From the IMG/VR virus record IMGVR_UViG_3300028044_000003, positions 47,531-111,530 of that record: a stretch of 64,000 bases of DNA; one strand, written 5' to 3'. Of the stretch, positions 21,674 through 42,900 are shown piece by piece. The stretch's first letter is position 1. Each line of letters begins with the position of its first letter. The notes under the pieces were generated by a model, which made no database searches, was not told where the DNA came from, and worked only from the letters and a program-made list of their open reading frames with translations. Source of the DNA: a virus. A program made the translations under genes and the position numbers.

Positions 21674-24600
21674 TTAACCGCCTGCGCTACGATTCTTTAT
21701 AGAGATTTTTTGTTTGATTTTTTCTATAGGAGAAACGTTAGAACCATCTATACCTATACTTTTAGCTAATGTAGTTATAAATTTAGAACCACCTTCTTGC
21801 TGCCATTCGTAAGGACCACTATCTCTCTTGTAATAAGCTCTTTCGTTATTCATTAACGTATGATAACCAAGAGCTCCCATTTTAGAATAAGATTCTATTG
21901 TTGGACCAAAAGCTAATGATTGAAAATCTAAAAGTTTAGTATAATCGTCTAATCCAAACCCTGGTAGAGGTATAAATGTTTCGTTTTCAGATCTAACGTT
22001 CATGGCCAGGAGTAAAGCGTGATTCTCAGCCCACCCCATAAGTCTGAAAGGATGTTCAGGATCATCAGCTATAAATGGTAAAGGCAAATCACCACTTTTT
22101 TCTCTTAGTTTTTCATATTTTTCATCATCATCTTCATCCCAACCAAATAATGGTAATAATAATGATTGTATAAATATCAGACCCATTATTTCTAACGGCA
22201 TTCTTAACATATTAAATCTTTCTTCCTGGTTCATTATACCCCATTGTTCGCTTGTATTTTTTGATAACCTATAAAGATTTCTTAGAGTACTGATATAAAA
22301 TCCCATTTTTAATTCATTAAGACCCGGGTTATATCTTGGTCTTATATTTCCGGATAAAGGATCTCCAGCAAATGCAAATCTTTCTACAAACATTGTAGTA
22401 AAAAACTTCTTTAGGTAAGATATAAATCTAAAGAATAAAAATCCTTGAGCTAACGGTTGGTTCATGTTAGCGTAATTACCTTCTAAAGATTGCTGAACAA
22501 TATTAAACTTATTAAGCATGTCTTTAAACTTAGCACCAGTAGCTATAGTAAGTTCAGTACCTGGTTCTACATCATTAAAATTTTCTAAACCTAATCTTTT
22601 TTTCAATTCGTCTATAGGAATGTTGTATCTAGTAGAAATAGAATCCATCGTATCACCAGTTACAAATAAATGTGTTGTTTTTCTAGGCCCATAATCAGGA
22701 TCTATACCTTCTTTAATAGTTAAAACGCCATCACGTATTTCCCAGGCATCCATATACGCTATAGGTTTGTCATATTGATAAACCGTTTGTTTGTACATCA
22801 TGGCCCCAAATAAAGATGTTTCAGATTGACCCTGTAACCACTCTCTAAAGTTATACAACCATGACATACCTAATACATCAGATGGTAAAGATCTTGAAGC
22901 AGCTCTTGCAAAACTTTCTCTCGGATCTTTCATACTAACCTGGAAAAGTTCTGTTAATTGTACATTTAAAGTTTTAGCTCCTATTTGATAAATTTGAGGA
23001 CCCATACCTTCAGAAGCAGAACCAAAACTTTTTTCACTCATTACTTTAAATGCCCATGCTTCACCTTTAGCTATAGATTTAGGATCTATATATTTACCTC
23101 CAGACATTAATAACATCTTCTGATACTTAGAACCCAAGTAATCTTTTAAAGCGGCTGGAATATTTAAAGCAAACATTGCCATCGAAGCTCTACCAAAAAT
23201 AAATTTAGAGAATGTTTGTATTGGTTTACTATTTTTACCAAATCCTAATAGTCTTTCATCATAAAACTCTCGTTTCATTAGAGTTTCGTAAATATTACTT
23301 CTAACATTAGAATCTCCTTTAACAAACTCGATAGCGTTATTAAGAAAATTCTTTTTATCAAGTTTTTCTAACTCTTTTGGAGTGTTTGTTTTTAATACCT
23401 GGTCTAAAGCTTTGGCTATAGGATGTATCTCAATTAACTTTTCTTGTTTAATCAAAGATGATGCGTAAGCATACATGCTAGTTATAAAATCGGTAGATAC
23501 ATCATCTATCGGAATATTATAGAGACCTTGAACAGGAATAGTATCTGGTTCAATCCCTTCAGAAGTTACTCTTACTAAATCATAATCTAAATCAGGATTT
23601 AAAGTTTCTAAACCATCATCTTTAGCTTTTTGATAAAACTGTCTAATCCTTCTAATGATGTATTCGAATATAGGAAACTTTTTACCTAATGTTTTACTAA
23701 TACCCCTTTGTCTATCTTCTTTAGAAGTTATAATTTTTTCGTACAAAGAAGATTCAAAACGAGGAAAATCGTAATATAATCTAGATCTTACCGGTTTACC
23801 TTCTTGGTTTTTTAAATGAAACTCTTTTACTTTTTCTAGAAGTTTGAATAACTTACCGTCTCTGGAATCGGGACTGGCGTTTTTAAGTTCGTAGTATCTT
23901 TCATTACGAAACGGAGAATCTGGTAATTCTTTAGGTAACCATTCTTTTGTATTAGTAACAGTTTTTCCTACAATCTTTTCAGTTCTAAGTTTAACTACAT
24001 TACCGTTTTCATCAGTGTATTCTTTCTTAACTACTTTACGAATGTATTTATAATTAGGTATTCTATTAATACTTACTACATCTCCATTACTATAAGTAAC
24101 TTCTCTTTTTTTATAATACTCATCACCCACAGGAGTTTTAACGGTCCATATATTTAACCTTTTCCAAACTTCTATTTCATTATCACGATCTTTATCATAA
24201 TAAACTTCTTGATAGTGGTTTTTTTCAAACCACGCTTTAAACTCAGGACTAGCTTTAAAAAGCTCTTTTAGTACTTCGTTGTCTAAACCCAAAATATTTT
24301 CATAAAGTCTATCAACATTACTTATAGTTATTTCATTAACGTCCTGACCAAAATTTTTTAACATAAAATCGTCAGGTAATCCTTCAATATTTTTAATCTT
24401 GTCGTTTAATATATCAAGATAATATTCAGTTGGTTCTTTAGAACTCATATCTGATATCTCCTGGACTAACAGATTATAACGTTCTAAATCTTTATCATTT
24501 ATACCGGCTTTTCTTTTTCTAGCTTTAGCGGTTGCGTAAAGAGATGATATCAACTGCTGTATTCCAGGTATTCCCCGATCTAATGAACGATATAATCCTC

Positions 24601-27600
24601 TTAATTGAGCACTTTCTTTTTTAGTAAAACCGTTAACGTTTAGTATGTCTTGTCTAAGAGAGTTTATTTGTTCTTGTATATCAGCTAAAGTATCAATTTG
24701 TTCTTCAGACATTATAGTACCATCAGGAGTATTGTTATCATCCTTACTAATATTAACCATTGATATTTGTTGCTCAAGTAGTTTTGATATTTTTTCCATA
24801 GCCTCTCGTTGTTTATCACCTTGAGGCATTCTATCTTTTATAGCGTTTAACTGTTGAATCTTTTCTCTAAGAACATTATAATAAATTACTTTACCATCCG
24901 CATCTACTTTTAATCTTTGATAAGTATTTTCTTTTAACCACTCATCTTCTCTTCTTCGTATTTCTTCAGCCTGGGTTACCGGATCTAATAGCTCTACAGT
25001 TATCAATCTGTCTTTAAAAGCGTTAAACTCATTCTCAAAAACACCAATTCTCTCCCTTTCTTCATAAAAGTTTCTAGTAAGCTTTCTATGTTCGATTAAT
25101 ATATCAGTTATTTTTCTATCAAACTCGTTTTTAAAATTACCATTACGATCATAGTAACTATACATTTCTTTATATCTGATACGAAGCGCTCTTAGGTTTT
25201 CTGCTACAAGAGCTTCGTCATCAAGTGCTAAGTCAGGGTCAGTTTGGGCGTTAAGATCATTAAACCAATTATCTCTTAATTCTCTGGCAGCAGCACCTTC
25301 CGCGGAGTTTTTAAATATATCATCCTTAGCATAAAACACATCAGTATAAGGTTGGTGAAACCACTTTCTTAAATATTCTAGATACTCTGTCTTTTTTTGA
25401 TTTAGTTCTTTTTCAATTTCAGAATCACGAGTTCTATCATATTCTTCTTTTAATTGTCTTATTTCTAACTTTTTTTGAGAAATAGTATAATCAACATCTT
25501 TAAACTTATCTATAAAAGCCCATACTTCTTTAGGTTTAATTTCACCATCTTCTTCAAAACCTCTTTTATCTTTAAAACCAATTTCCCTACCCAACTTACC
25601 CTGTTGTCTTTGAGTATATCCAAGAGCATCTAAAAGAGGCTTTAATACTTCAGTTTGATTATAGTAAGTATCAAAACTTTTTACATTAACTTCTATAAGG
25701 GCATCCTTAAGAAACTTAGCAAAACCTCCAATAACTGGATCACTCTGATACATATATCCTTCCAACCATCCGTTAAAATAATTTGAATCACCGAGGTTAC
25801 CTTTTAATGTTTCTAGTATTTTTTCTTTGGTGAGAATAACACCTTCCGTATACATTTTCCTTTTTAAACGTTCTAACTGAGCTTTATCTTTTATATTTAA
25901 ACTACGCGCAGAACTTAAACGATCGTAAGTTTCTTTTTCACTAATAGTTAAACCGTAATATTCTTTATGATAAGCTTCGATTTGAGATTGAGGAGCTCCG
26001 TTTAATTGTAAAGTCCTGATAATTTCTGTATAGTATTTATCATTTCTTTCAGCCATATCTTCCCACTGTTCCCAAAGAACTTGACCCACACCTTTTAAGT
26101 AACCGGTTTCATTATCACCCTGTACTTCTTTACGGGCGTTTTCAAGGTTTTCATCAATATTATTTACAAAAGAATAAATAGGATCATCTGTTTTTAATTT
26201 CAAGTCATTATTAAAAACATTCATAGTATTCTTAGTAAAGTTCGACCAGTAGTTTATGATGTTTTCATAGTATTTTAACTTTTTAATATAATCTAAATTC
26301 TGCTTTTTAGTAAGATCTGATAAGTCTGAGTTTATAACTTTAATATGTTCTCTAAGTTTGGAAACCATGTTTTCTACACGGTTCAGAGTAACTACAAATC
26401 GATTAGCCCTGTCTTTAGTAAGCTCTAAATCTTTTTCCAGTTCTAATTTTAACTTATTAAGATTCTGTGTAAGATCGTATAAATCACCTCTCTGATACTC
26501 ATCTTTTAAAGCTTCAATCAACTCTTTGTCTTTCAAAGGATTCATAGCTCTGATAGTACCCCTGGCTTTATCGTACATGTCTTTTACTATTTCGAACACC
26601 GGTGCCGCGTTATCATTAGTAACATCCATGATACTCTTAATTAACTCAGCATTGTTATTCTGATAAGCAACAATATCACCTTGAGTTATTTTTGTAGAAT
26701 CTAGTTCAAACTGCTCATCATCTAGTAATATTTCGGCCAGGTCATATAGTGTAGAGTTTTCATTAATTCTACTTACCGGTTTGTTACCGAAAAGTTTGTT
26801 CAAGAAAGTTCTAAGACCTGTGAAAAATCTTTGTATTAGTGTAGGTAGTATGTTATCCGGTTTAATACCCTGAGCTTTTTTACTAGCTGATAATTGTATT
26901 GCTTTTACTAATACTTCTTCTTTTACAATTCCTGAGTTGTCTTGGACTCCTGAATATTCATCCAGGGTTTGTTGTAGTATCACCTGTCCTTCCGGCGTGG
27001 CTATAAACTTCTCGTATAAATCATTCATTAAACGAGGGTTTTCTACCATAAGAGCTCTTACAAAAGGGTGAGCAAACTCGTGGAACTGTGTTTCAAAGTC
27101 AATATTGTTTCCGACAAAGTATACTTTACCTCCCAAGAAGAAAGCTTTTTGACCTTTCCAAGGATTTTTTGTACCGGTGGTTAGTTCAAAAGCTTTGTCT
27201 GAAGTAATTATTTGAAAAGGTACTCTTAACTTATTTGATAATTTTTCAGCGATTTGAAATACGATACTAAGAGAACGGTCTTCTTCTGACGCATTTGGTT
27301 CTATTTCCTGGATCGAATTTTCTCTAATAAATTCTTCTCTTAATTGATCATAAACATCTTCAGAAGTTATTGTATCACTATCAACTTTATTATCTATAAA
27401 TGTATTTTTATTACTAAATGTAAAATGTCTAAACCCTTTAATATTAGCAAAACTACCATCACTTTTTCTATTAAATGGAATATAATTAGCAAAGTCTCGA
27501 ATATCTTTAGCCCTACCCATTTTTATTTTAGATTCGAAAATAGGTTCCCAATCTTGAAACCCTTTTTCGTTTTTATCTAATTCTAAATCAGATACAAAAA

Positions 27601-30600
27601 ATAAATCAATAAGATATCCATCAATACTCCCAGTTATTGTTACATCGTTTTTTTTTAATCCTTTAAAACTATTTGTTATTTTAAATGAAGGATATTCTTT
27701 TTTTATAGAGTTTAATAAAGGATGTTTTTTATAGTTTTTTGCAAGTTCTTTTTGAAATTTTTCCATCAAAAATATCTTACCTGTTTCTGAAGCCCCTTCA
27801 AATTGAGATTTTATGTCTTTATATAACTTGTTAAAATAATCACCTTGTTTATCTAAAGTCACCGTAAAATCTAAGTCGTGTAAATCTTCAGTTATTTCTC
27901 TATAAAGAGTACCTTGTTTTCTTAAACTCAAACTTCCTGTAAGTAATAAACCTAATTTTTGAAATTTTGATATTATTTCTTTGGCTTTTTCATCTTTTTC
28001 AATAGTATTGTTATAATTAGTTATTTGTTGTTCTGTATCTAAAATCGTTCCAAACTTATCAAAAGTATTATTTAACACATCGTTTGCAATATCAGATAAT
28101 AAATTTTGTAGTTCGTCATTAGTTAATTTAGTATTTAGAAATAATTTTTCTAAAAACTGTTTTACTTTAGATAAATAATATTTAATTTGTTTTTCTAACT
28201 TACTATTACCATCTATTCTCCAGTAATCGGCTTTTCGATTTTGATAACTATCTCTAGGATTTTCAAAATTATTTTTGATTGCGTCAGCTATAAAATCTAT
28301 AACTATTAATTCTTTTATAGTATAATCATTTAACTGAGGACTTCTTTTTTTATAATCTTCAAAAATTTGTTGATAGTTATTAATATTTTCAATACTATAA
28401 ACTAAATCTGTTCTAATCTTATTTTTTTTACCTAAAAAACTGTAAGCAACATAAGCCGTTTCTTTTAATAATCCTTCGTCTTTAAAATTATTTTTTATTC
28501 GAATAGTTTTATATAATAGATCTGTTACTGCTAAAGGATTAAATTCGTGTAATAATTCGTTTTTAAATTCTGTTGTAAAGTTTAAACTATTAAGGAAATC
28601 AATTAATTTAGACGATAATAAATCTTCAAAATTTATTTGTTCTTCTACTCCTGGTTTAACGTTAGTAAAAGATTGAGTAACAAACTCTCTAAATCCTTCT
28701 ATGTCTTGTTTAGAACCTAATATGTGAATTTGTTCAGGTTCAAATATAAGACCTATATCACCTGGAGTTATAATAGAATCATATCCGTTCTGTATAAATT
28801 TATCTTTATATTTTTGCTCTAAGGAATCGTACTGTAAGCTATCATCTTCAATATAAGGATTTTTTAAATTTAACAACAATCTTTTTATTTTATCTCCAAA
28901 TATACCACTCGACTTATAATAACTAAAATATATACCCGGTGTTTCTATTGCAAAATTTAAATCGAATTTTTCAAAATCCGCTTTACCTTCATGATAAACA
29001 ATATCTTTTACTTTGCTATCAGAAAATATAGTGTCTAGATATTGAGAGTATAGTTGCTGAGCTTGTTGCTTTTGTTGTGGGGTTATTTCTTTAGTGAAAT
29101 CATAACCTTCATCATTAGTAGTAAACCCTTTTGATTTTAAAAATGTTTTTAAATCATTTAATAATTCATCTCTTAATTTATCTCTATTTTCTAATGCTTT
29201 GTCTCCAATATCTTCTATGGAATGTGTTTCTGTGTAAAATGGTCTTATTAATGTAAATTTAACTGCTCCTAAAGAAATTGCTTTATTTATTTTAGGTATA
29301 AATAAATCTAACAATTCATTTATTTTATCTGCTTCAAAATCATAAATTTCTGGCTTTAAAGCTACTTGAGCATTTTTAAAATCTTTATCATCATATTCTG
29401 GAATTCTTTCATCATTAGTAATGATTGCTTTAGATTTAACTACGGTATTAAAACCTAAAGCTTCATATACAGCATTAGCTAATTCAGGATTAGAATCAAA
29501 TAGTTCTTCTACTCCTGGTTTAATTTGTCCTAATGAATAATATAAATAATTAGGGTTTGAAAAATAATCATTAAATGAAGTTTTAAAATCAATAAGGTCT
29601 CTAATATCTTTATTTCTACCTATATCCATCTTAGCTTCAAAAGTATCTTGCCATCTCATGTCTCCAAATGTATTTTTATTAGATGGAGGATTGATATTTA
29701 TAAAAAAGTCAACAGGCATACCTTTGATTATTAAAGTATGAGTTGTTTTTTCACCTTTACTAAATACTTGAGCTTGATTTGTTTTTGGATTTATTTTATA
29801 GGTTAAATCTGGAAAAGTAGATTTTACTAAATCTAACCAGTTATCTTGTAATTCTTTTGGTACTTGCCAATCTAAGTCATGCAAGTTATCATTAGATTCT
29901 CTATATACAGTTCCTTCATTTGAAAGAGCTGGAGAACCTGTAAACATAAAACCTAAAGAATTTAATTTATGATATATTTTATTTATAGTAGAATTATTTT
30001 CTAACACTTCTTTTAAAGATACAACAGTTTCTCCTTTTCTAGCTCTACTAGAATTATTAACTATTTTAGATGTATTATTAAATAATATATCATCTACAAT
30101 TTCATTTATTACAGCATCAAAAGGTCTAATGTTAACTTTATTAACACCTTTAGTTTCAATACCTCTTTGCTTTAAAAATCTATCAACAGCTTTGTAATAA
30201 TCTGATTTCCATATTTTATTAAATAAAGCTAGTATACCATTAATAATAGTTTCTAAAGTTGTTAGCTTTTTATCTTGCTTTGTTTTTTTAGTTCTATCTT
30301 TATTTTCTACTATTCTTTCAGCTAAAAGTTTACTAAGTATTTCAACTTTTAATTTTCTTTCATTGTTTTTATAGATAGGATCATTTTTATATAAATCATA
30401 ATACTGTTGGTATTTTTCCCAACTAGCTATATTTTCTAATGCTCTTCTAATTAATGGAGATGCTTCAGCGTGTTTGCTAGCACCCATAAACTCAATTGCA
30501 AAAGTAGCAACCTCTTCAGCATAATCTAAAGTGTTATATTTGTTAGAATCAAGAAATACAGCTTTGTGTAATATATCAGATACTGCAACAGCATTACTAT

Positions 30601-30955
30601 TTAATCCTTTTTCTTGTAATCTTTTTTGTAAATTATTTACAACTATAGTATCTACATTAATAGATGTTAAAAAATCTTTTAATTTATTTTCAAGGTTGTT
30701 AGCTAATTCAGGATTAGAATCAAATAGTTCTTGAACACTCGGTTTTACTCCTGGTTTTATTTCTTGTACTACTCGTTCACCAGGTTTATTAAAACCCATA
30801 TTTCTGTCAGAAATCTTTTTAATAACTTCTTCAGGAGTACGTATAACACCATCGTTCTCTAACCAATCCCTCATTGCTTCAAACTTACCGATCAAAGGAT
30901 TATTTTCTAAAGCTTTCCACTCTGGAGAATTAAAATTAGGACAAGAATTTTTCAT
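21674..30955 (-). CDS. giant virion-ejected polyvalent protein (2 nucleotidyltransferases, ART-like domain, zincin peptidase, LysM)
   Basis: 3093 aa, directly downstream of vRNAP; GS..DLD motifs at ~29870-29938 and ~27869-27938; VYH..GIYFS..NLKNP..GYDSII; HEFAH 27068-27082; LysM 22545-22676. Confidence 0.85.
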   Translation of the reverse strand: MKNSCPNFNSPEWKALENNPLIGKFEAMRDWLENDGVIRTPEEVIKKISDRNMGFNKPGERVVQEIKPGVKPSVQELFDSNPELANNLENKLKDFLTSINVDTIVVNNLQKRLQEKGLNSNAVAVSDILHKAVFLDSNKYNTLDYAEEVATFAIEFMGASKHAEASPLIRRALENIASWEKYQQYYDLYKNDPIYKNNERKLKVEILSKLLAERIVENKDRTKKTKQDKKLTTLETIINGILALFNKIWKSDYYKAVDRFLKQRGIETKGVNKVNIRPFDAVINEIVDDILFNNTSKIVNNSSRARKGETVVSLKEVLENNSTINKIYHKLNSLGFMFTGSPALSNEGTVYRESNDNLHDLDWQVPKELQDNWLDLVKSTFPDLTYKINPKTNQAQVFSKGEKTTHTLIIKGMPVDFFININPPSNKNTFGDMRWQDTFEAKMDIGRNKDIRDLIDFKTSFNDYFSNPNYLYYSLGQIKPGVEELFDSNPELANAVYEALGFNTVVKSKAIITNDERIPEYDDKDFKNAQVALKPEIYDFEADKINELLDLFIPKINKAISLGAVKFTLIRPFYTETHSIEDIGDKALENRDKLRDELLNDLKTFLKSKGFTTNDEGYDFTKEITPQQKQQAQQLYSQYLDTIFSDSKVKDIVYHEGKADFEKFDLNFAIETPGIYFSYYKSSGIFGDKIKRLLLNLKNPYIEDDSLQYDSLEQKYKDKFIQNGYDSIITPGDIGLIFEPEQIHILGSKQDIEGFREFVTQSFTNVKPGVEEQINFEDLLSSKLIDFLNSLNFTTEFKNELLHEFNPLAVTDLLYKTIRIKNNFKDEGLLKETAYVAYSFLGKKNKIRTDLVYSIENINNYQQIFEDYKKRSPQLNDYTIKELIVIDFIADAIKNNFENPRDSYQNRKADYWRIDGNSKLEKQIKYYLSKVKQFLEKLFLNTKLTNDELQNLLSDIANDVLNNTFDKFGTILDTEQQITNYNNTIEKDEKAKEIISKFQKLGLLLTGSLSLRKQGTLYREITEDLHDLDFTVTLDKQGDYFNKLYKDIKSQFEGASETGKIFLMEKFQKELAKNYKKHPLLNSIKKEYPSFKITNSFKGLKKNDVTITGSIDGYLIDLFFVSDLELDKNEKGFQDWEPIFESKIKMGRAKDIRDFANYIPFNRKSDGSFANIKGFRHFTFSNKNTFIDNKVDSDTITSEDVYDQLREEFIRENSIQEIEPNASEEDRSLSIVFQIAEKLSNKLRVPFQIITSDKAFELTTGTKNPWKGQKAFFLGGKVYFVGNNIDFETQFHEFAHPFVRALMVENPRLMNDLYEKFIATPEGQVILQQTLDEYSGVQDNSGIVKEEVLVKAIQLSASKKAQGIKPDNILPTLIQRFFTGLRTFLNKLFGNKPVSRINENSTLYDLAEILLDDEQFELDSTKITQGDIVAYQNNNAELIKSIMDVTNDNAAPVFEIVKDMYDKARGTIRAMNPLKDKELIEALKDEYQRGDLYDLTQNLNKLKLELEKDLELTKDRANRFVVTLNRVENMVSKLREHIKVINSDLSDLTKKQNLDYIKKLKYYENIINYWSNFTKNTMNVFNNDLKLKTDDPIYSFVNNIDENLENARKEVQGDNETGYLKGVGQVLWEQWEDMAERNDKYYTEIIRTLQLNGAPQSQIEAYHKEYYGLTISEKETYDRLSSARSLNIKDKAQLERLKRKMYTEGVILTKEKILETLKGNLGDSNYFNGWLEGYMYQSDPVIGGFAKFLKDALIEVNVKSFDTYYNQTEVLKPLLDALGYTQRQQGKLGREIGFKDKRGFEEDGEIKPKEVWAFIDKFKDVDYTISQKKLEIRQLKEEYDRTRDSEIEKELNQKKTEYLEYLRKWFHQPYTDVFYAKDDIFKNSAEGAAARELRDNWFNDLNAQTDPDLALDDEALVAENLRALRIRYKEMYSYYDRNGNFKNEFDRKITDILIEHRKLTRNFYEERERIGVFENEFNAFKDRLITVELLDPVTQAEEIRRREDEWLKENTYQRLKVDADGKVIYYNVLREKIQQLNAIKDRMPQGDKQREAMEKISKLLEQQISMVNISKDDNNTPDGTIMSEEQIDTLADIQEQINSLRQDILNVNGFTKKESAQLRGLYRSLDRGIPGIQQLISSLYATAKARKRKAGINDKDLERYNLLVQEISDMSSKEPTEYYLDILNDKIKNIEGLPDDFMLKNFGQDVNEITISNVDRLYENILGLDNEVLKELFKASPEFKAWFEKNHYQEVYYDKDRDNEIEVWKRLNIWTVKTPVGDEYYKKREVTYSNGDVVSINRIPNYKYIRKVVKKEYTDENGNVVKLRTEKIVGKTVTNTKEWLPKELPDSPFRNERYYELKNASPDSRDGKLFKLLEKVKEFHLKNQEGKPVRSRLYYDFPRFESSLYEKIITSKEDRQRGISKTLGKKFPIFEYIIRRIRQFYQKAKDDGLETLNPDLDYDLVRVTSEGIEPDTIPVQGLYNIPIDDVSTDFITSMYAYASSLIKQEKLIEIHPIAKALDQVLKTNTPKELEKLDKKNFLNNAIEFVKGDSNVRSNIYETLMKREFYDERLLGFGKNSKPIQTFSKFIFGRASMAMFALNIPAALKDYLGSKYQKMLLMSGGKYIDPKSIAKGEAWAFKVMSEKSFGSASEGMGPQIYQIGAKTLNVQLTELFQVSMKDPRESFARAASRSLPSDVLGMSWLYNFREWLQGQSETSLFGAMMYKQTVYQYDKPIAYMDAWEIRDGVLTIKEGIDPDYGPRKTTHLFVTGDTMDSISTRYNIPIDELKKRLGLENFNDVEPGTELTIATGAKFKDMLNKFNIVQQSLEGNYANMNQPLAQGFLFFRFISYLKKFFTTMFVERFAFAGDPLSGNIRPRYNPGLNELKMGFYISTLRNLYRLSKNTSEQWGIMNQEERFNMLRMPLEIMGLIFIQSLLLPLFGWDEDDDEKYEKLREKSGDLPLPFIADDPEHPFRLMGWAENHALLLAMNVRSENETFIPLPGFGLDDYTKLLDFQSLAFGPTIESYSKMGALGYHTLMNNERAYYKRDSGPYEWQQEGGSKFITTLAKSIGIDGSNVSPIEKIKQKISIKNRSAGG
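28639..28659. repeat. 21-nt direct repeat (copy of 29503-29523), encodes KPGVEE
   Basis: GTTCTTCTACTCCTGGTTTAA identical at both sites. Confidence 0.9.
29475..29523. repeat. central composite copy of the cassette-boundary repeat (IKPGVEELFDSNPELAN)
   Basis: 29475-29508 is identical to 30699-30732; 29503-29523 is identical to 28639-28659. Confidence 0.92.
30699..30732. repeat. 34-nt exact direct repeat (ELFDSNPELAN)
   Basis: TTAGCTAATTCAGGATTAGAATCAAATAGTTCTT, identical to 29475-29508. Confidence 0.92.
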
Positions 30956-30964
30956 TGAATTTGA

Positions 30965-33900
30965 TTATTTAAAACAAGTTACGAAATTACTAATAACATC
31001 TTGATCTGATACAGGTTGTTGTGAAGTTACTATGTCTTTAAGTTTTTGAGATGAAGTTTCTATTATAAAACCAGGGTTATAATATCCAAAGTTTTTTAAT
31101 AACTCGTTAGATAAATAAAGAAAACCTCCCCTATAATCATCTTTATTCAAACTTTGACCATAACCACTAGAACTTAACATTAAGCTTTTATCTTGGATAT
31201 CTTCTCTAAGCTGTGTAATAAAATTATCTACATCAGTTTTTAGTTTAGGATTAGCAACCAAAATACCTTTATCATTTCTAACATCTTTAAGATTTGTTTT
31301 TAATATATCAAATTTTATTACGTTTGGTTTATTAGGTATTTTTTCTGTTACACCCACACCGTCTACTAAAAATAGAGCTCCTGGAAACATTGAGTATACA
31401 TTTTCCATCGCATTATTATCCCGGTACTCAAATATGTTTTCTTTTAGAGGTTTAACAGTGTCAAAAAAAATACTTTGATCAGTACTTACATCAGTTAATA
31501 GTTCTTTTAAAGATTGAATTTTACTTATTGGTGAAACATTAACAGGGGTTACTTTTGTAGTTACACTAGGTTGAGTAAATTGTATAGATTTAAGTTCCCC
31601 TCTAACTTCCATAAGAAGTTTGGAAAATCTACCTTTATCTTGTTCTATACCATTATATTTATGTGTAAGTTCAGCATTTCCTGTAGCTAATAACTTAGCA
31701 AGAGCATCTGGATTTTGTTGGAAAGAATCTTTTAATAATGCTTTCATAATTGTTGGAGACATGTTATCCCAAACTTTCTGATCTAATCCTTTAAACTCTT
31801 TTCCTAATTCTCTAAGTCTTTTACCATCTTTAGTATCTTTTATAACACTACCTACAGCTCGATTATTCTCATTCTTAGGAGAGAACTCAGTTTTATAATA
31901 TTGAAACGCTTGTTCTACAGAATCAAAATTTATACCTAAGTGTATAAAAGGTCTAATAGCAAAGTTACTTAACTCAGCATTCTCTCCTGTACCAGCGTAA
32001 ATATTAATCTTAATTCCTGCTGCTACTAAAGGATTTGATTCTAGAATCTTGCTTGTCATCTTCATTCCTGTCTTTAAGTCTACATTACTAATGTAAACCT
32101 CACCTGTTTCTTTGTCTACTAAATTATACAAGTCATTATCTTGTAATATCCACTTAGAAGACTGAGGAGCTTTTTCTCTTTTACCTGTAGATTTATTATA
32201 AAACTCTTTAAATCTTGTATTAGTAGTAAAAAATTCTTTAGGCATCTTACCATCAGATTTTTCTACATATTGATTGTATGCATCTATATCTGATTGAGAA
32301 ATAATTTTTACACTTTCACTTTCATCTTCTTCTTGAGGTTTTACTTCAGTACCCCAATCATATTTATTAATAAGATAATCTAAAGCTGTAGCGTGAGTAG
32401 CATAATTCTTTTCTTCATAATAAAGAATAGGACTTTTTATTATTTTACTTGATTTAATATCGTTAATAATAGCTTGTCTATATTCTTTTGTAGCATTAGT
32501 ATTACCAAAATTATTACCAGTAATCATCCACTCAATAAACTTTTTAGTAGATTTTATACCTTGTTCTTTTCTTGTACCTGTTTCATCTGCAAAATCAAAA
32601 GGATTACCTACAGTGTTTCCATCTTTATAATTTTGTAAAAATGTTTTTTTCTTGTTTCCTCTGTATGCAATTAGCATAGGTTTCTTACCAGGAAACTTAT
32701 AATCAAACATAGATTTTGCTTCTGGAACAATATCATTCCAAAAGTTTTTACCTGTATATTCTGTGTTTTCTTCTAAATCTTTAGGTAAGATAACATTTTC
32801 TGATTGTATTAAATTGTCTTTGTTTATGTCAGAATAAATTTCTTCTGCTGTTAAAATAACTTGCGGTTGAGTAGTAAGTTTAGCTGGTGTTGCGGGTATA
32901 CCTGGTTCTAAATCCGCAGCTCTTCTAAATGTAAGGGTAATAGTATAATTAGTAATAACTCTACCATCTGAAAGTTTAATTGGCGGATAAGGATTCTTCT
33001 TTATATTTCCTAATGGCGTTGTGTGAGAGAGAGCAAATCTACCTTTACCATCCATACCAAATGTATAAATAGTACCATCTTTAGTAGCAATTTCATTAGT
33101 AGGTTTTCTTCCTTGGTAATCTTCTTTATAGGCACCTTGGAAAGTTATCTTACCTTTATTATCATCCCATATACCAAGGCCAGAATTATTACCTATTGTA
33201 TAAACAACAACAGGATATCCTTTAGCAGACTTAGCTTCTGTAGTATCTCTATGCGGAGCTATACTTTGGTTATCTAAATATATGTTTCCCAATATAGAAT
33301 CATAATCAGACATATCTAGACCTAAAGCGTTTTGTATTTTATCAATTAACGGTTGTAAATCTGATATAGGAGGTAAAGGATTACCGTTTTGATCTAATTC
33401 GTGATAGTCATAAATATATTTTGACTTATCTACTGTTAATCCAGCTTTTTTTAGAGCCGCTATTTGTTGTTTAGTTTTTTCAACACCAGCAAAAGAATTA
33501 ATTAATAATGGTTTTGCTTTAAGATTTACTCTTGACCACATACGACCAAAAGAAAACTGCCAGTTAGCATTAACTCCAACATTTTCTTTATAAGCTTGTC
33601 TCTGAATTTGAGGAGCTATAAGATTTATAATTTCTTGAGTATCAACTTTTGTAGGATTTGTATCAACTTTAACAACACCGTAATCTGGAGAAACTACTTT
33701 AATTTCAGAAATAAAATCTGATGTTGCCGATATTTCAGATATTTTTTCTAAACCTTTACCAGCTAAAACTTTATTGATAGCTTCTAACTCTTTAACTTGA
33801 TATTTTCTTAACTCTTCAAGAGTTTTAAATCTTTTTAATAATTGTACTTCGTTAGTTATTGTAAAAAATAAATCTACTACCGGTAAATGGTGTAAAGAAC

Positions 33901-36900
33901 CTGTTAATACTGTATACCCACGTTTTGCAAATTCTTTTAATCTACCTCTAACTCTTTCCTTAACTTCATCATTTTTATAACTATATTTTTTTGAAAAATC
34001 TAAAATAATACCTTGAGGAGTTGTTTCGGTAGTTTTAAACTCAGGAACTACTTTATATATTTCTTCTATAGTAATGTCATCAGCGTCAATAACGCTTAAA
34101 GGGTTTTTAGATTTAAAAGTTGTTTTACCAGAGCCAGGAGTAAGGTATATAACCTTACCGCGATATTCGTCTTTTATAGTAATATATTTATCAATAATTA
34201 TATCAGTGTTGTTTGATAAAAAGTCTGCTGAATAATTTTTAGTTCTAGAACCAAAAAATCTATTTAATAAAACGTTATAGTCAGTTAATATATTTTGATT
34301 ATCAGAAATAGATCTGATATATTTATTAATTACTTTTGGATTAAGTACATCTAAATACCTTTGAGGATTTACTAATCTCGTTAAAGTGAATTGGGTACCG
34401 GATATAAAACCTGATTGTAATAACGCTACTATCTCAAACTCTTCAAAAAACTCAGATATTGCCCTATTAATCTGAACATTTTCTACTTTTTTTACTGTAG
34501 GATCTTTTAACTGATTTAACTCATAATTTAGAACTTGTAGTAAATCTTTAGTTAACTGTACGTTTTTTAAAGTCAAATTTTTATAACCGCGGAACTCGTT
34601 TATGTTTAAGATTTCTACCAGCTTATAATCATTAACCAATTTTGGATAACGGTTTTTTATATTATAAAACCTCTGAGCATAATTATTACTTTCTGTAACA
34701 TCTTCGTTTATAACTGTTTGGAATATAGCTCTTGGATTATAAGTTTTTCTAAGAGCTTGATTTTTTAACCATTTTTCGTATTTTTCTACTCTTTTTACTT
34801 TATCTTCAATGTCTTTGTACTTAGTTTCTATAGGGAACATTACCCTGAATAACTCTCTCTGTACTAAAAATTCAGCAAACTGTTTATCATTAGTAAAATA
34901 ACCCTTATAGCTTTTATCCCTATATGTTTTAATATTTTCATCAGAAATTTTATCTACCGGTTTATTATACTGTACGGTTTCTCTGTATAATTTTTTTACA
35001 GTAATAGGATCTATATAAATAGTATACTTATCCTCAGTTTTTGTAACAATTACTCCAAATTCAGAATAGTTAATTTTTTTAGCTTCTGTATCTTTTTTAA
35101 ACTTGACTTCAACTCCTTTAAAACTATTAGCTTTAGTGTAATCAAACTCTAAAATTTCTTTTTGGAAAATGTAAGTAAGTAGGTGATTCTTAAAAGTTTT
35201 TACTTTATACTCTTTATCATCTTTATTAAGAGTATTTTTTACTACATCGCTTGCTATAAAATTATTTAACTCTAGGTTATTTCTTAGAGGAAATAATTTT
35301 GAAATAAACGCTTCAAGATAATCTTTGATAAAAAAAGATTTAAGCATTGTTTCTTTTTCTAACGCTTGTATTTTATCAAGAGGTATACTATCGTCTTTTT
35401 TAATTTTATTAATTTGTTGTTCTTTTTCAATTAGCTCGTATAACGATGCTGGACGAGTAGTATCTGGATTAAAGTTTAATTTAATAGCTCTAACCTTATC
35501 TGACATTTCTTCTACTTCTAAGTAATGTAAAAAGATAAGCTGTTCGTATAATTTTTTAACTTCTGGTTCTATATTTTGCGTCTCATCATCGATTAAGTTT
35601 TGTAAAACTTCTTCTAAAACTCTACCATCATCATCTAGATTAATATTATAATCTAGATTTAATCGATCTTTAATACTACTTATTTTTACATAAGGATTTG
35701 AAATATCATTTTGCGAAAGACCTAATTCTTCACCTATTTTAAATTTTACTTCACTAGTATTTGTTTCAGATAATAAACTATTTGCAGCAATTTTACTATC
35801 GATATATTCAACAATAATCGGCTGACTCATAAAGTTAACTATAGTAGTAAACGGAACACCGGCCTGAACTAAGAATAATATTTTAGGAGCGGCCTCTTTG
35901 TTACCCTGGATATTAAAAATCCAAGGATCTTTTGCTACGTCTACCCATCCGTTAATTAACTGAGATATTACATCAGCTATACGGTTAACACCATTCACAT
36001 CCGTAACATCAGATAAAGAAATAGCTTTTTCATTATCTACTATTAGACTTCTATGTGGTATTAAAAGTCTTTGAGGAAGCCTTTTAGGAACAGTATTATT
36101 TGTTCTTGTAGGATTCATATACATCCCTACAATATTGAATAATGTGTTAAAAGTATTATCTACGGCGCCAAGCCCTAAAGCTTGTTTACCAACAGAGTTA
36201 GAAGTATGACTATGTAAATTATATCCGTATTCAAATATTTTCGTTTCAGCTATTAAAGGTTTTTCTTCTGTACCTAAAAAACCATCAATCGTTTTGTTTC
36301 TAAAAGGATTGTATTTTTTAGATTTAGAAGCCATTCTAGTAGCTTCTGGTTTAGCAATATCAGTATCGTTTGGTGTAATTAAAGATTTAAAATTACTATC
36401 TAATGCTAGTATATCTTTTACTACATTAATAAGATTGTTCTCTAAACCTTTTACAGTATTTTCTGAGGTATCATATTTTACAACACCATCTTTAATACTA
36501 AGGTTAGGCATAGTTACGTTTAACTTATCAACGTCAAAATCCGAACCTGATTTAACAACAATTTCTATCGGAGGAATAATAATATTACCTGCTTCTTTTG
36601 GTAAAAACTCTGCTACCTCCATAAACTCCATAGAGTTATGGCCTTGTACAGGAATACGTACACCAATCATAGTAATCATTTTACGATTACTACCAGTATT
36701 TAACCAAGTTTCATTCTTAATTAATTTATTAAGATTTGCTAAAGAAGCTTTATAGTTTAATTCTTTTTTAGGTTTACCGTTCTCATCTTTTACTTCATCA
36801 TAAACAGCTACTTCTTTTAGATAAAGTAGTTTTTCAAAATCACCTTGTATGGCAATTTTAACTTGCATACTTACTGTACCGTCTTTACCCTTGTGATAAA

Positions 36901-39900
36901 ACCTTAAACCGTTGGTACCGTATTTAAGTATATCTTTTTGATCGGGTTTTTTAAAACCAGATTGTTGCCAGCCTACACTAGATACCTGGATTAAACCTTC
37001 TCCCTTAACTTTTTGAGTAATTAATTTTCTAACAACAAGAGATGTAATTAATTTTTCAATTTTTTCAGCTTGAGGGGTTAAAGAAAAATCTACATTGTTT
37101 AATTCTGTAGCTGAAAAGTTTAAAAAATCTAATTCATAATCTGCGATCTCTTGACGCGTTAATTCTTTTTTTACAAACTCTACAAGGTTTATTAATTTAC
37201 CAGAAGGTTTACCGTTTTTTATCTCCCAGCCTATTTCATTAAGTAGTTCTTTTTTCTTAGCTTCAGTTAAATCATTTACTACTCGGTTATAGTCTTGTAA
37301 TAAACGATATTCTTTAGACTGTAGTTTTATTTCTTTAGGTTCAGAGTTCCATAAAGATATCCTATCTTCTAAACTTAAACCTTCGTTTATTTTATAATCG
37401 GCAGGAACCCCGTTTACCATTAAACTTTCAGCTACAAGTTTTCTTAACTGACTGGCAAATATTACTTTCTTTTTAAACTTAGGAGCAATGTCTACCTGAT
37501 TTTTAAGATACTTTAGATGTATTGTGTTTTTAGTATACTCAAAATTGTTATTGTTTGATAATGTGTTACCAGCTTCGTTTAAATATTTATCTGGATTATC
37601 TTTCCTAGAAAGAGTTCCCACCTTAGATCCGGATATAAATGTAACGTAACCTATATTTTCCCTGGTTAATTTATCGTGTAATTCTTTAAGTATACTATTT
37701 TCACCTATTACTGAAGGGATTAACGGCATTAAAGAATACTTATGAAAAGCGGTTATAGGTAAACCATTAGTTATTAAAGGCCCGTAATATTGATCTTTCA
37801 TAACCGGGAAGAACTCAAGAATATCTTCTAAATTAACAGTATCACCGTTAAGTATTTTATTGTAAAGAACATCTTGATCGTTTGACCAAGTACCTTTTAA
37901 ATAATTTAACTCGCGATATTTATCAAAAGTTATATAACCCTGAGCATTTGTAGATTCTTCTTTTCCAGTATATTTAGAAGCTTTTTTAGAACCTAAGATT
38001 TCTTCAAAAGCAGCAGCATAGTCCGACTTAACCGTTTCATCTTGTAATACAGCGGTATTCATAGTACCGTCAAATAACTCGTCATATTCTACGCCAAGTT
38101 TTTGAGCATAAGTTGAAAAACGATTATTAGGTTTAACTGTTGTTCTTAGATTATTAATAAAACTTAAAGCTTTTTTATCAGTTCTATAAATATTACCAGT
38201 AGAACCGGCACCTGCTATACGTTTATTAGCTTCTTGTTTTGTATGTTCAAAAGAAGCAACGTTACCGTAAAAAATAGTGTAAGCTTCTACGTTATTTATA
38301 AACGTATTAGCAAACATAAATCTAGAAATAACATCAAACCTTTCATAAATATTTAAGTTTGATAATTTTTTATCATTTAATAATGACTCACTAAACCCAA
38401 TACTTAGTTTCTTGTTGGTTATTAAGTCTGTTAACGGATTTAAAATATCTGCTTTGTAACCTTTATTAAAGTAATTTGTAATATCAGTTTGTATTTTACT
38501 TAATAAAACTAGATCTTTACTATTAAGATATTCTTCTAGCTCACTTGTTTTTAAATATTCTTTATTTTCTAAAAGTGTTAATAATTCTTCTTTAGTATCT
38601 TTTCTTAAGATATCTTTAAACATTAAAAAATCAGAACCTCTCTGAGCATATTTCCAATCAAATACAGCGTTAGTACTTTTGTCTAAATCCCTTAGTATTT
38701 TTATACGATCTAATTCAGCGTTTAAATAACCTATAAGGATATTGGTAAAAGTCTGAGTACCGGTATTTTTATCTTTTATAAAAGTATCCAAATCAATATA
38801 AGCTCTGGAATTACTTCCTAATACTTTGGTTAAAGAATAACTATAAGAAGTAGACTTATCTGAATGACGAGGTAGTTCAAATATTCCAAGTTTTATAGCT
38901 AAAGCTATATCAGATACTCTTTTTGTTGTAGGATCTGCTGAGGCAAGTGCAATACCTTTACTAAACTCTTCATCATCGTATATAGCTGTACCACTAAGAT
39001 TTTGTAAGTCTAATTTAACATTAGCTGCGTTTTGAAAATTAGATTCTTTTAATTTGTTACCGAAAGTTTTTAAACCGTTTTCATCAGTTATTTCTTCAAA
39101 CAATGATTTTAATACGATAGATCTTTTTGCATCCGGATTTCGTTTAATATCAAAATGACTCATCCAGGGTAACGTTATAAGCTCCTGGTAAGTGTTTACT
39201 TCATTTATCGTATTAGTTATAATCGTTAGTTCGTTATTTAAACTATGTTCAAACTGAGTCTCTCCTTCAGCGTTTAAAACCATAAACGATAAATTAGTCT
39301 CACCGTATGTAGCTTCTAGTTTAGCATAATTTTCAAATAAATAACTTAGATCTACTATATTCTCAGAATCAGATTCCTTCCAAAACTCGTCTACAGTTAA
39401 ATTATTATTTTTTAATTTACTGATTTTTGTAAGTATAGTTTTAAGATTGTCTTGTGATAAACCTATTTGACTATCACCTAGTTTAATAGAATCTTTGATT
39501 AAACTTGTATTACTTACATATACTCCTAGAGAGTGTAAAAAAGATATAGGGTTTTCTTTAACCTTATCAAGACTATTGAAATTTTTAAATATTTGACTCA
39601 AGTTAAGTACCTTGGTCGTATAAGTTTGATCATTTCTTTTTACATCAATAGAATAAATAGACTCTTTAGTTTTAAAATTATCTCGCCATAAAGATTTTAA
39701 CTTGCTAGTTTGACCATAAGATTTACCAGCAGTTACTTCCCAACCAGTAACATCTTCTCCTAACTCTGTTCTTTTTAAATTTACTTGTAGTAATTTAATA
39801 TAAGACTTGTTAAAAGATTGCCAGAAACGAGTTTGTAATTTGAATCTTTCTACATCAGAACCTATTTCATCAATACCGCCTAATCTTTCAGCTATTTGAC

Positions 39901-42900
39901 CAAATATATTAGTTAAGTCTTTATCACCACGTTTAATTATATTCTGATACATTTTATCAAAATCTAAATTATTTTGTGTAGCGGTGATAGCTTTATTCCA
40001 GGCTATGTTAAAAGGAATAAACTTTGGAGTACCGTAACGATTTACTTTTAATACTTTTCTGTCTTCTTTAATATCATAGTCTATCATAGTACCTAACATA
40101 AATTGAATTTCTTCAAAGGCCAATTCCTGGGTAGACTTATCGATACCTGTTCTGTCAGCGTACTCTGAAAAACCTTGTTCTCGTTTTTCAGCTTCTATAG
40201 CATCTTGTTCTTCTTGTGTTAGATTTTCTTTAACTGGTTGTTTAGCAGCTTCTTTACTTTTTTCCTCTAATAAATCTTTAGCTTTTAGAGGGATGATATT
40301 AGATTTTCTTATATGATAATTTATTAAACCACCTTTACTACTGTTAAGATTATCTAATATATTATCAAGATTTCCAAAATTATCAATAGCTAAAGACAAT
40401 TCTTGAAACTTATTTAATAATAAACTATAAGCATCAGTATTAGTACTAGTATTTTTAAGTTGTAAATTGGTTAACGATCTTAACAACTCAAGATCTGATT
40501 TAACTATCTGGTATGCTTTTTTTAATTTTTCAGGATCGTTTATATATGTTAAAAAATTTCCTTCATAATTTTGTTTACCAATAACTGGTTCAAGATTTAC
40601 TATACTATTGTATATTTTATCTTTATAAATTTTTTGTTCGTCTGTATCAGACGGTAAGTTATTATATTTATTTATAATTGCTTGAAGCTGGTCTTTAGTA
40701 AATGTTTTTGTAGCACTTGAATAATTAATTTCAGTATTATTAACTACTGCAGAAAAATAATAATCCATACTAGATAATATTTCTACACTAGAACCACCTA
40801 AAAGAATATTTTCTTGTTTTTGATTATCAGTTTGATAAGTCTTTGGTCCTTCGTAAGCTAATGAATCAAACCTTTTAAAGTTATTCCAGGAAAAAGGTTG
40901 TTCAAACAAAGGCCCTTTACCAGTATTTAGCTGTTCGTACATATTATAGAGATATGGTACCGATGATTGTCCTTTAGCTAAATCTATAGTAGTTAGATTT
41001 TTAAATAACTCAATTAGTAGATCTTTAATTTTTCTGAATATATCTTTCTTAGCAGGGGCTTTTACAAACTCACCTTTACCTGTTAACATGTATTTTCTAA
41101 AATCTTCAGCTAAATACTCTTCTAACTCCAGGTCTGAAGCTTTACTAAATTTTACAAAAGAACCAGTATGGGTTTTAAATACTCCAGGTAGTTTACGAGC
41201 TTCTGAGTAAAGCTTATCTTGTTGTTCTTTTGTTAATAGGGTTTGAGTAAATATATGCCAAGCTTCGTGATACAAATCAGTAGAGTCAGAACCCATGTAT
41301 AAAGTAACGCCGGCTCTATTAAACTCAGCTACTTTTTCCATGTTCATAATACTCCTCATATCGTTCATCTTCCAAATATCGGAAGCCATTCGTGCTGCTG
41401 GATGATTAGCAAACCATTTATTAGCTCTTTCTTCGTATTGTTTTAAATCAGAACCTAACTGATTTTCAAGAGCTTTCTGAGTATTGTTTTTATCAAGTCC
41501 TAATAGTTCACTTAATAAATCTTCATCTTCATCAGGTTTTACCTCTAGTATAGTTTTATTCTCAAAAGTTATGTAGGGATTATAGAACTTAACTTTATTA
41601 TCAATAGAAGTATAAAAAGGTAAAGTAAAATTGTTTTTTATAAAACTACGATAAGAGATTACATTATCTATTATTTGATTCTGGTCGTTTATTTCAAAAT
41701 CATTAATCATGAAATTTCGAACGCTTTCTTTAATATGCAGTTTAGCTTTTTCTATAACATAAAATTTATCATTAAACTTAAATACATCATTTACCTTTAG
41801 TTGGCTTTCAGAAACTACTTTACCTTGTAATAAAAATTTACCTTCAGAAAAACTGTAAGGTTTATTTTTATAATTTTCTATTTGTAAATCACTTAAGTCT
41901 TCTTCTTTATCGGTTTTAGGGTTACCGTGTAGACCGTTAAAGTATTTTTGTAAAGCTTCAACAAATTTTTCTTTATTTATTTTTTCAATTTTGTTACCAA
42001 TAACTTGTTCAAAAATAAAATCGTTATTATTATTTCTCTTTAATATAAAAGATTGAAAATTAACGGTTAATAATAAGTTATTATCTTTAATAGTTAATTG
42101 AAAACCAGAACTTGCTTTAATATTAATAAACGTTTCAATTATATCTTTAATTTCTGAATTAACTAAAACCTTATCCGAACTATCTGTTACTTTTTCAGTT
42201 AAAAGTTTTGTTATGTTTTGAGCATATTTAGAATCAAAAGTTAATTCTTTTCTTTCGATAGTAACCGGTATATTTAAAGTTGCTGTCTGATGCTGAATAG
42301 TTACCTCACCGTTATTATTTATTGTATAATTAAAAGGTATTTCTACATTATTAACTTTAAAATCTATATCAGATAATAGTGTATAATCATTTTTATCATC
42401 TTTTCGTATAACAGTCCCATAACTACCACCCACTATATTAAAAGATTCTTTATAACCAACTTCTTTATTTTCAAGATATTTGAATGTTTTATAAAGATCT
42501 AGTAACTGGGATTTTATTATAGAATCAACTTCTTTTGTTTGTTCGTTTTTAAACGTACCCTTGATATTATAAACTTTACTTAATTCAATAACTACTGTAC
42601 TATATACATTAGTTTTAGAATTATTAAACACTGTATCATCTATTACATCTATACCTAGTTCATCTTGTTTAACTAAATCAGATAATTTAACTTTAGAGTC
42701 AATCCCAAAAGAACTTAAATTAAAAGGATTTGTCTTTTTAGATTGGCCCGTTTTATTACTTATATCAAACGTATCTGTGTTAAAAAGAATTTCTGTATCA
42801 TCTTCAAAAGCAAATGTAGAATAGTAGTTATTTTTTTCTTTAACAATAATTACTTTTACTTTTTTATCAAACATTAACGGAGTACCGGATACATACAAGT

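Follow-up and report, generated by a model that had tools for sequence, protein, structure and literature searches.

We analysed a stretch of 64,000 nucleotides (positions 47,531 to 111,530 of the virus record IMGVR_UViG_3300028044_000003; hereafter, the window), in which an open reading frame (ORF) on the minus strand, 21674..30955, encodes a protein of 3093 amino acids (aa), P0001, that holds two nucleotidyltransferase (NTase) domains, D1 and D2. The source record is 111.5 kb long (111,530 bases) and is estimated to be 93% complete; all features described below lie on the minus strand of the window. The best explanation of the results, to which we assign as a whole a probability of about 0.6, is that P0001 is a cargo protein with two probably active NTases, which would be loaded together with the virion RNA polymerase (RNAP) and would act early in infection. 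P0001 would then be a cargo protein of the crAss001 gp49 type in an uncultured crAss-like phage, and its N-terminal ~1200 residues would represent effector cassettes added to the gp49-type protein. These cassettes would comprise two paralogous units, each composed of a zincin-derived helical domain of ~210 aa without HExxH, followed by an NTase of 150–190 aa with the Pol-beta fold. Catalytic activity, packaging, ejection, timing and target are what we infer here, as opposed to what was computed.

The motifs quoted in the original prediction, which was made from the nucleotide sequence and its ORFs, were all recovered in the reading frame of this minus-strand ORF. D1 (aa 319-472; 29540..30001) contains LGFMFTGSPAL (aa 334-344), LHDLDWQV (aa 358-365), VDFF (aa 415-418) and WQDTFEAKMDIGRNKDIRDL (aa 435-454), located together at window positions 29594-29956, while D2 (aa 986-1175; 27431..28000) contains LGLLLTGSLSL (aa 1001-1011), LHDLDFTV (aa 1025-1032), IDLFF (aa 1116-1120) and WEPIFESKIKMGRAKDIRDF (aa 1136-1155), located at 27491-27955. 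The Pol-beta motif can thus be read in D1 as TGS (aa 339-341), HDLD (aa 359-362) and a third carboxylate within VDFF, and likewise in D2. When D1 and D2 were compared by BLASTP, they showed 30% identity (E 1e-11), a similarity far above chance, and by this sequence evidence they are true paralogues, in agreement with the earlier view of two diverged paralogous domains. The paralogy extends upstream of the NTase domains, with 27% identity (E 5e-17) between aa 70-457 and aa 766-1158, indicating that the duplicated unit is a cassette of ~400 aa and that the first cassette begins near window position 30750, beyond position 30000, at which the pair had originally been taken to end.

Next to the motifs, we analysed the conservation of individual residues. 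Among 66 copies of the domain from related giant proteins, the invariant or nearly invariant residues were G340, S341, G348, R352, H359, D360, D362, D416, F418, K442, R447, K449, D450 and D453. D2 keeps the same residue at all of these positions, the equivalents including the GS at 1007-1008, R1019, H1026, D1027-x-D1029, D1117, K1143, R1148, K1150-D1151 and D1154, and it differs from D1 by an insert of ~40 aa after the DxD strand. The catalytic residues are therefore retained in both copies, as expected for NTases that had been described as apparently intact. Orthologues of the D2 type were detected in other giant proteins with E values of 1e-82 to 1e-34. When 184 copies were placed in a tree, separate supported clades contained D1 and D2 (0.999 and 0.964), which lie at a patristic distance of 2.8, indicating that P0001 combines two old subfamilies and did not arise by a recent tandem duplication. 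Since the metal- and nucleotide-binding residues are conserved in both paralogues and in hundreds of clusters, we infer that both NTases are active and move a nucleoside monophosphate from a nucleoside triphosphate to a hydroxyl group. The catalytic set would consist of the G-S turn, of the D-x-D and a further Asp, which would jointly hold two metal ions, and of the C-terminal Lys together with R-x-K-D-x-x-D, which would bind the nucleoside triphosphate.

For D1, a predicted structure was also obtained. An AlphaFold2 (AF2) model of aa 300-476, built from a 38-row alignment, reached a mean predicted local distance difference test score (pLDDT) of 88 and a predicted template-modelling score of 0.83; AF2 from the single sequence reached a pLDDT of only 41 and was unusable. 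In a Foldseek search against the PDB, the top ranks were occupied by JHP933, TM1012, a CCA-adding enzyme, DNA polymerase lambda and MenT1, with E values of 2e-3 to 2e-2 and probabilities mostly of 0.84-0.99. In the VIA comparison, the best match of the model was MenT1 (Z 9.6-9.7; 140 residues aligned, root-mean-square deviation 3.1-3.2 Å), followed by ANT(2'')-Ia (Z 9.0), MenT3 (8.8), TM1012 (8.1), LnuA (7.9), JHP933 (7.7) and giant-virus poly(A) synthases (7.7), and a second tier at Z ~5-5.6 included CCA-adding enzymes, DNA polymerases beta and lambda, and terminal uridylyltransferases. Every top match of Foldseek and VIA was an NTase, covering model residues ~17-172. Based on the model, the assignment of a Pol-beta NTase fold to D1 is supported, and the comparison by AlphaFold and Foldseek, for which a fold other than Pol-beta had been named as the refuting outcome, yielded a Pol-beta-like fold.

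Neither NTase domain stands free; each forms the second half of a cassette of ~400 aa, of which the first half is a helical, degenerate zincin-like domain (hereafter, the N-domain). By hidden Markov model (HMM) search, this N-domain of ~210 aa was found to precede 172 of 192 NTase copies (90%) immediately, even in cassettes placed at the C-terminal end of a giant protein. In P0001, N1 (aa 87-318; 30002..30697) heads the first cassette, matches the N-domain HMM at E 8e-52 and is paralogous to aa 780-985, the region of N2 (28001..28618), which heads the second cassette and was identified by the same paralogy and HMM. A third copy, N3 (aa 1276-1411; 26723..27130; HMM E 2e-6), keeps a full HExxH, in the form of HEFAH at aa 1292-1296 (27068-27082), and the corresponding columns read EEVAT in N1, KETAY in N2 and EExxH in many other copies. 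Judging from these sequences, the N-domain resembles a zincin-like module whose metal ligands have for the most part disappeared, and it seems to serve repeatedly as the opening part of the cassettes.

An ADP-ribosyltransferase (ART) domain resembling ART-PolyVal lies between the two cassettes (aa ~630-768; 28652..29068), with the motifs VYHEG, GIYFS and IFEPEQ. This domain was not called by the Pfam scan of P0001 itself, and was recognized by BLASTP to the PF18760-called stretches of the relatives P0039, P0038 and P0005 (E 4e-23, 6e-16 and 1e-9, respectively), with 42% identity to the Pfam-called ART-PolyVal stretch in one relative. The module between D1 and the ART domain (aa 495-625; 29081..29473) gave no family match; a weak similarity to the N-domain was detected here between aa 74-218 and aa 482-651, at E 1e-4 without composition correction. 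A linker sequence, KPGV(E)ELFDSNPELAN, is repeated at the start of three modules, at window positions 30698-30760, 29474-29524 and ~28610-28660; the copy at aa 478-494 (29474..29524) reads IKPGVEELFDSNPELAN, and the related copies lie at aa 66-86 and ~766-780. This linker could be a cleavage or recombination site. The linker was also considered as a general boundary of cassettes and was rejected as such, as one copy was found in only 48 of 253 related proteins under a loose regular expression.

To describe the distribution of the domain family, a word-based search was performed with aa 310-1170, which gave 277 giant homologues of 1.7-5.4 thousand aa. Pfam labels in these homologues include ART-PolyVal, PDDEXK, NADAR, AlkB-like, Kinase-PolyVal, Zeta toxin, NDK and PP2C. 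When 1.84 billion representatives were scanned by HMMER with a profile of 11 rows, the NTase domain was detected in 466 clusters at 50% identity (E <= 0.001), nearly all of them giant proteins or N-terminal fragments of such proteins. The position of the domain within the protein was variable, with residues 250-400 as the commonest start, and only one fragment emerged when free-standing relatives of D1 were sought by a word-based search. Few related loci were present in the viral, metagenome and genome collections; the loci of genomes G039, G146 and G228, which are flagged as unpublished, were excluded from every alignment and underlie none of the claims made here. Among 185,579 species genomes, a single match to the NTase domain was observed, at positions 1692-2360 of locus L016 on a 6.6-kb contig (CAYGXY010000079.1) of a Dehalococcoidales metagenome-assembled genome, and this contig is probably a phage fragment binned with that genome. 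No published description of this NTase family on crAss-like cargo proteins was found. Particular to P0001 is that it unites two NTase subfamilies in a single protein of the gp49 type, one on either side of an ART domain.

We then considered whether P0001 is carried in the virion. Its C-terminal region (aa ~2484-3050; 21806..23506) is homologous to aa 814-1313 of crAss001 gp49, with 21% identity over 604 columns in BLASTP (E 1e-7). The gene directly upstream (30965..43834) encodes a protein of 4289 aa, which by tblastn matched the RNAP genes of crAss-like phages (phi14:2 g066, crAss001 gp50 and that of crAssphage) and thus represents a crAss-type virion RNAP; the structure of phi14:2 gp66 was not recovered when the RNAP region was compared with PDB sequences by phmmer. 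The order of the two genes, RNAP and then P0001, is that of crAss001 gp50 and gp49, and both are located in a same-strand block together with genes annotated as 'virion structural protein'. In virions of crAss001, gp45, gp46, gp47, gp49 and gp50 were detected by mass spectrometry, and it has been proposed that these proteins pass out before the DNA by extrusion in a partly unfolded state (PMC10172136); the same delivery was predicted for phage polyvalent proteins in general by Iyer et al. 2017 (PMC5512222). The homology to gp49, in conjunction with the synteny with the RNAP gene, makes the delivery of P0001 into the host plausible, and with it the injection that the original prediction had assumed. 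P0001 differs from crAss001 gp49 in its length (3093 versus 1349 aa) and in an added LysM-like insert of the peptidoglycan-binding type (aa 2766-2804; 22544..22660), which coincides with a gap in the alignment to gp49 and is absent from gp49. This insert matched PF01476 at E 8e-4, just under the cut-off, and is clear in the homologue P0005 (E 3e-7). It is followed by a hydrophobic, possibly membrane-spanning segment of 19 residues (aa 2919-2937; 22145..22201; Kyte-Doolittle mean 1.81).

Judged by its domain content, P0001 is a polyvalent protein as understood by Iyer et al. 2017, with two NTases, an ART-PolyVal domain, an HExxH module and LysM within one ORF among virion genes. It resembles the proteins of that survey in being a giant multi-enzyme protein with an ART-PolyVal and an HExxH module, and in having relatives that carry NADAR, AlkB, kinase, PDDEXK and Zeta-toxin domains. 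The RNAP has add-on domains of its own, namely NADAR (aa 3952-4059; Pfam E 1e-10) and an AlkB-like domain (aa 3466-3553; 2OG-FeII_Oxy_2 E 1e-4, below the cut-off), suggesting that the RNAP itself is polyvalent. The 2017 survey listed Pol-beta NTases only for polyvalent proteins of conjugative elements, of the minimal MNT/NTox45 type (PMC5512222), whereas the NTases of P0001 are of a phage type, belong to the MenT/ANT group and are tied to a degenerate zincin-like domain.

Several observations weigh against the explanation given at the outset. The homology to gp49 is limited to the last ~600 residues of P0001. By tblastn, neither aa 300-1200 nor aa 1201-3093 gave a match in 50,697 GenBank phage records, and crAss001, which is among these records, likewise showed no NTase-like sequence. 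The Z scores of 8-10 are only moderately above 7-8, the typical best Z for models without a clear Foldseek match; the top matches, however, were NTases throughout and spanned the entire domain. None of the Pfam NTase models matched the NTase domains, and Pfam and PHROGs on the whole of P0001 gave the LysM match and nothing else. PF08843 (AbiEii) had no match on D1 or D2 at E <= 10, none anywhere in the genome and none among 38 family members at E <= 1, and PF10706 had none in the genome at E <= 10, while a control search with it gave matches in Thermotoga maritima. By hhalign, the probability was 1.3-4.5% (E 0.009-0.04) against the AbiEii alignment and 1.9% against PF10706, neither of which is significant; between AbiEii and PF10706 themselves, it was only 17%. 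The helical C-terminal lobe of MenT and AbiEii is reduced, with only two helices in D1 (model residues 136-146 and 149-157) after the sheet and before the linker. Because of these non-matches in Pfam and hhalign, the assignment to a family rests on the predicted structure and on short motifs. In further searches against PDB sequences, phmmer of D1 gave only designed 'Cake'/'Bagel' repeat proteins over 22 residues, which we regard as spurious, and profiles A3 and A5 gave nothing below E 0.2, a match to VapD at E 0.2 being taken as chance.

The original prediction had placed both domains in the AbiEii/MenT clade, whose NTase toxins (DUF1814, PF08843) comprise MenT1, MenT3, MenT4, AbiEii and JHP933. 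Dy et al. 2014 described the DUF1814/AbiEii family by hG[GS]x15DhD with an Arg in the spacer, motif III with a Lys (KLxAaxxR) and motif IV, +DxxD. Motifs I-IV can be read in D1 as GS-x18-DLD with R352, FEAK442...R447 and K449-D-I-R-D453, and D1 thereby shares with AbiEii the long spacer containing a conserved Arg (18 residues in D1 and 15 in AbiEii), the Lys of motif III and the +DxxD of motif IV (KDIRD). Compared with AbiEii and MenT, motifs III and IV of D1 are ~8-12 residues closer together, and a consensus for AbiEii that we derived from 24 loci of genomes (KGG..R.seDlDf...aEKl.A...r.rDlyDl) was collinear with the D1 motifs only under greedy extension. The PF10706 consensus, GGW..G.qtR.H.DlD...d..D..Dv, likewise has the Arg, a His beside DxD and a D..D pentad, indicating that +DxxD and the Arg do not discriminate for AbiEii. 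The C-terminal K...R-x-K-D-x-x-D, which had been taken as typical of the AbiEii clade, thus does correspond to AbiEii motifs III and IV, but its +DxxD pentad does not set that clade apart. At the position of auto-phosphorylation in MenT, two residues before DxD (T39 of MenT1 and S78 of MenT3), D1 and D2 have Leu (Leu358 and Leu1025) in place of Ser/Thr. The NTases of P0001 also differ from AbiEii and MenT in that the helical partner domain is N-terminal and not C-terminal of the NTase, and in that there is no cognate antitoxin gene, the domain being internal to the 3093-aa ORF and embedded in a giant phage protein.

The similarity to ANT(2'')-Ia, TM1012 (PF10706) and LnuA is comparable. The Z scores of ANT(2'')-Ia and TM1012 lie within about 1.5 of that of MenT1. 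These enzymes share with D1 a similar size (155-175 aa) and fold, and the pattern G-x3-R...H-(x)-D-x-D, and the PF10706 consensus shares the C-terminal K/D-x-x-D pentad; unlike D1, they are free-standing, and ANT(2'')-Ia and LnuA act on antibiotics. As MenT1 and MenT3 were nearly tied with this group in the VIA comparison, the AbiEii/MenT clade in particular is only one possible placement. The NTase appears to represent a separate family in the neighbourhood of MenT/AbiEii, ANT(2'')/TM1012 and Lnu, and the case for membership in AbiEii is weak.

As for the mode of action, P0001 would most likely enter the particle along with the virion RNAP and leave it by extrusion into the cell, either before the DNA or together with it. 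Still within the giant protein or once cleaved from it, the NTases would then be at work during the initial minutes of infection. Our preferred acceptor would be the 3' end of an RNA, followed by a host protein and, third, a small molecule. Among the nearest structures, MenT acts on tRNA 3' ends, and ANT and Lnu act on aminoglycosides and lincosamides; the substrates of TM1012 and JHP933 are unknown. As D1 and D2 come from anciently separated subfamilies, their specificities may differ.

Four alternatives to this explanation were weighed. It is possible, at a tentative level, that the NTases serve counter-defence by nucleotidylylating acceptors other than RNA, namely a host defence protein or a small molecule, and so disarm a host or environmental inhibitor at entry. 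MNT antitoxins AMPylate HEPN toxins, and ANT(2'') and Lnu inactivate antibiotics. Consistent with such a function, ANT(2'')-Ia and LnuA are among the high-ranking VIA matches, the G-x3-R...H-D-x-D of P0001 is closer to the PF10706 consensus G.qtR.H.DlD than to AbiEii, and the neighbours in the ESM Atlas include a cluster with PF10706 in 17% of its members. The adjoining ART-PolyVal, NADAR and AlkB-like domains are typical conflict enzymes, and protein NMPylation was proposed for the NTases of polyvalent proteins by Iyer et al. (PMC5512222). However, the PF10706 model itself had no match and no significant hhalign probability, and no candidate target is encoded in, or predictable from, the window.

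We consider it rather doubtful that the NTases shut off the host in the manner of MenT, by adding nucleotides to the 3'-CCA ends of host tRNA, blocking aminoacylation and halting host translation. The presence of motifs I-IV and the rank of MenT1 and MenT3 among the top structural matches point in this direction, and MenT1, MenT3 and MenT4 have been shown to be NTases of tRNA 3' ends (PMC7450476, PMC10435456). Against this stand the near-equal scores of ANT(2'')-Ia, TM1012 and LnuA, which have small-molecule substrates or no known function, the loss of most of the second, helical lobe of MenT, and the fact that the family is not basic overall (median isoelectric point 6.3; 5.6 for D1). Moreover, ARAGORN detected no tRNA or tmRNA gene across the whole 111,530-base record. 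The phage thus depends on host tRNAs, and broad poisoning of tRNA would harm the phage too. We therefore consider a general shut-off of translation less likely than a targeted modification, be it of the end of an RNA, of a host protein or of a small molecule.

It appears unlikely that the NTases serve the phage in RNA-end repair or tailing, by rebuilding tRNA 3' ends damaged by nucleases of host defence or by tailing the early transcripts of the co-injected RNAP. In favour of such a role, the gene comes after that of the RNAP, proteins of the gp49 type carry an annotation as RNAP-associated, the fold matches include CCA-adding enzymes and viral poly(A) polymerases (Z 5-7.7), and the restoration of RNA ends by phage NTases is known (PMC7824862). 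The top structural matches, however, are not repair enzymes, the CCA-adding enzymes score far below MenT and the ANT group, and the cassettes contain neither an RNA ligase nor another repair partner. Finally, that the NTases are catalytically dead modules, acting as spacers or as nucleotide-binding folds that aid the loading or unfolding of the cargo, is suggested by the accompanying N-domain, which itself lacks HExxH, but is very improbable given that 13 positions with a polar residue or Gly, among them all three carboxylates that bind metal, vary little or not at all across copies with otherwise 25-35% identity and are kept in both paralogues.

The explanation of P0001 as a virion-carried protein with two probably active NTases bears on the biology of a whole group of phages. 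Few known viruses are as abundant as the crAss-like phages, and the role in the host of their large protein cargo is largely unknown. A family of apparently active NTases of 466 clusters, outside Pfam and almost only on giant phage proteins, provides a concrete, testable activity for this crAss-like cargo. As the 2017 survey had Pol-beta NTases only on conjugative elements, P0001 adds a case of the phage type, and it would extend the chemistry of MenT/AbiEii and ANT(2'') from bacterial toxins and resistance enzymes to a virion-delivered phage tool. We tentatively suggest, as a conjecture that goes further, an undescribed NTase family that crAss-like phages would inject on their RNAP-associated cargo protein, that is always paired with a degenerate zincin-like targeting domain, and of which the two subfamilies in P0001 might nucleotidylylate two different host targets, disarming the cell before transcription of the phage genes begins. 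If this is true, the targets may be found among defence proteins, molecules of immune signalling or particular RNAs, and the cassettes would constitute a pre-loaded, swappable system of anti-defence enzymes.

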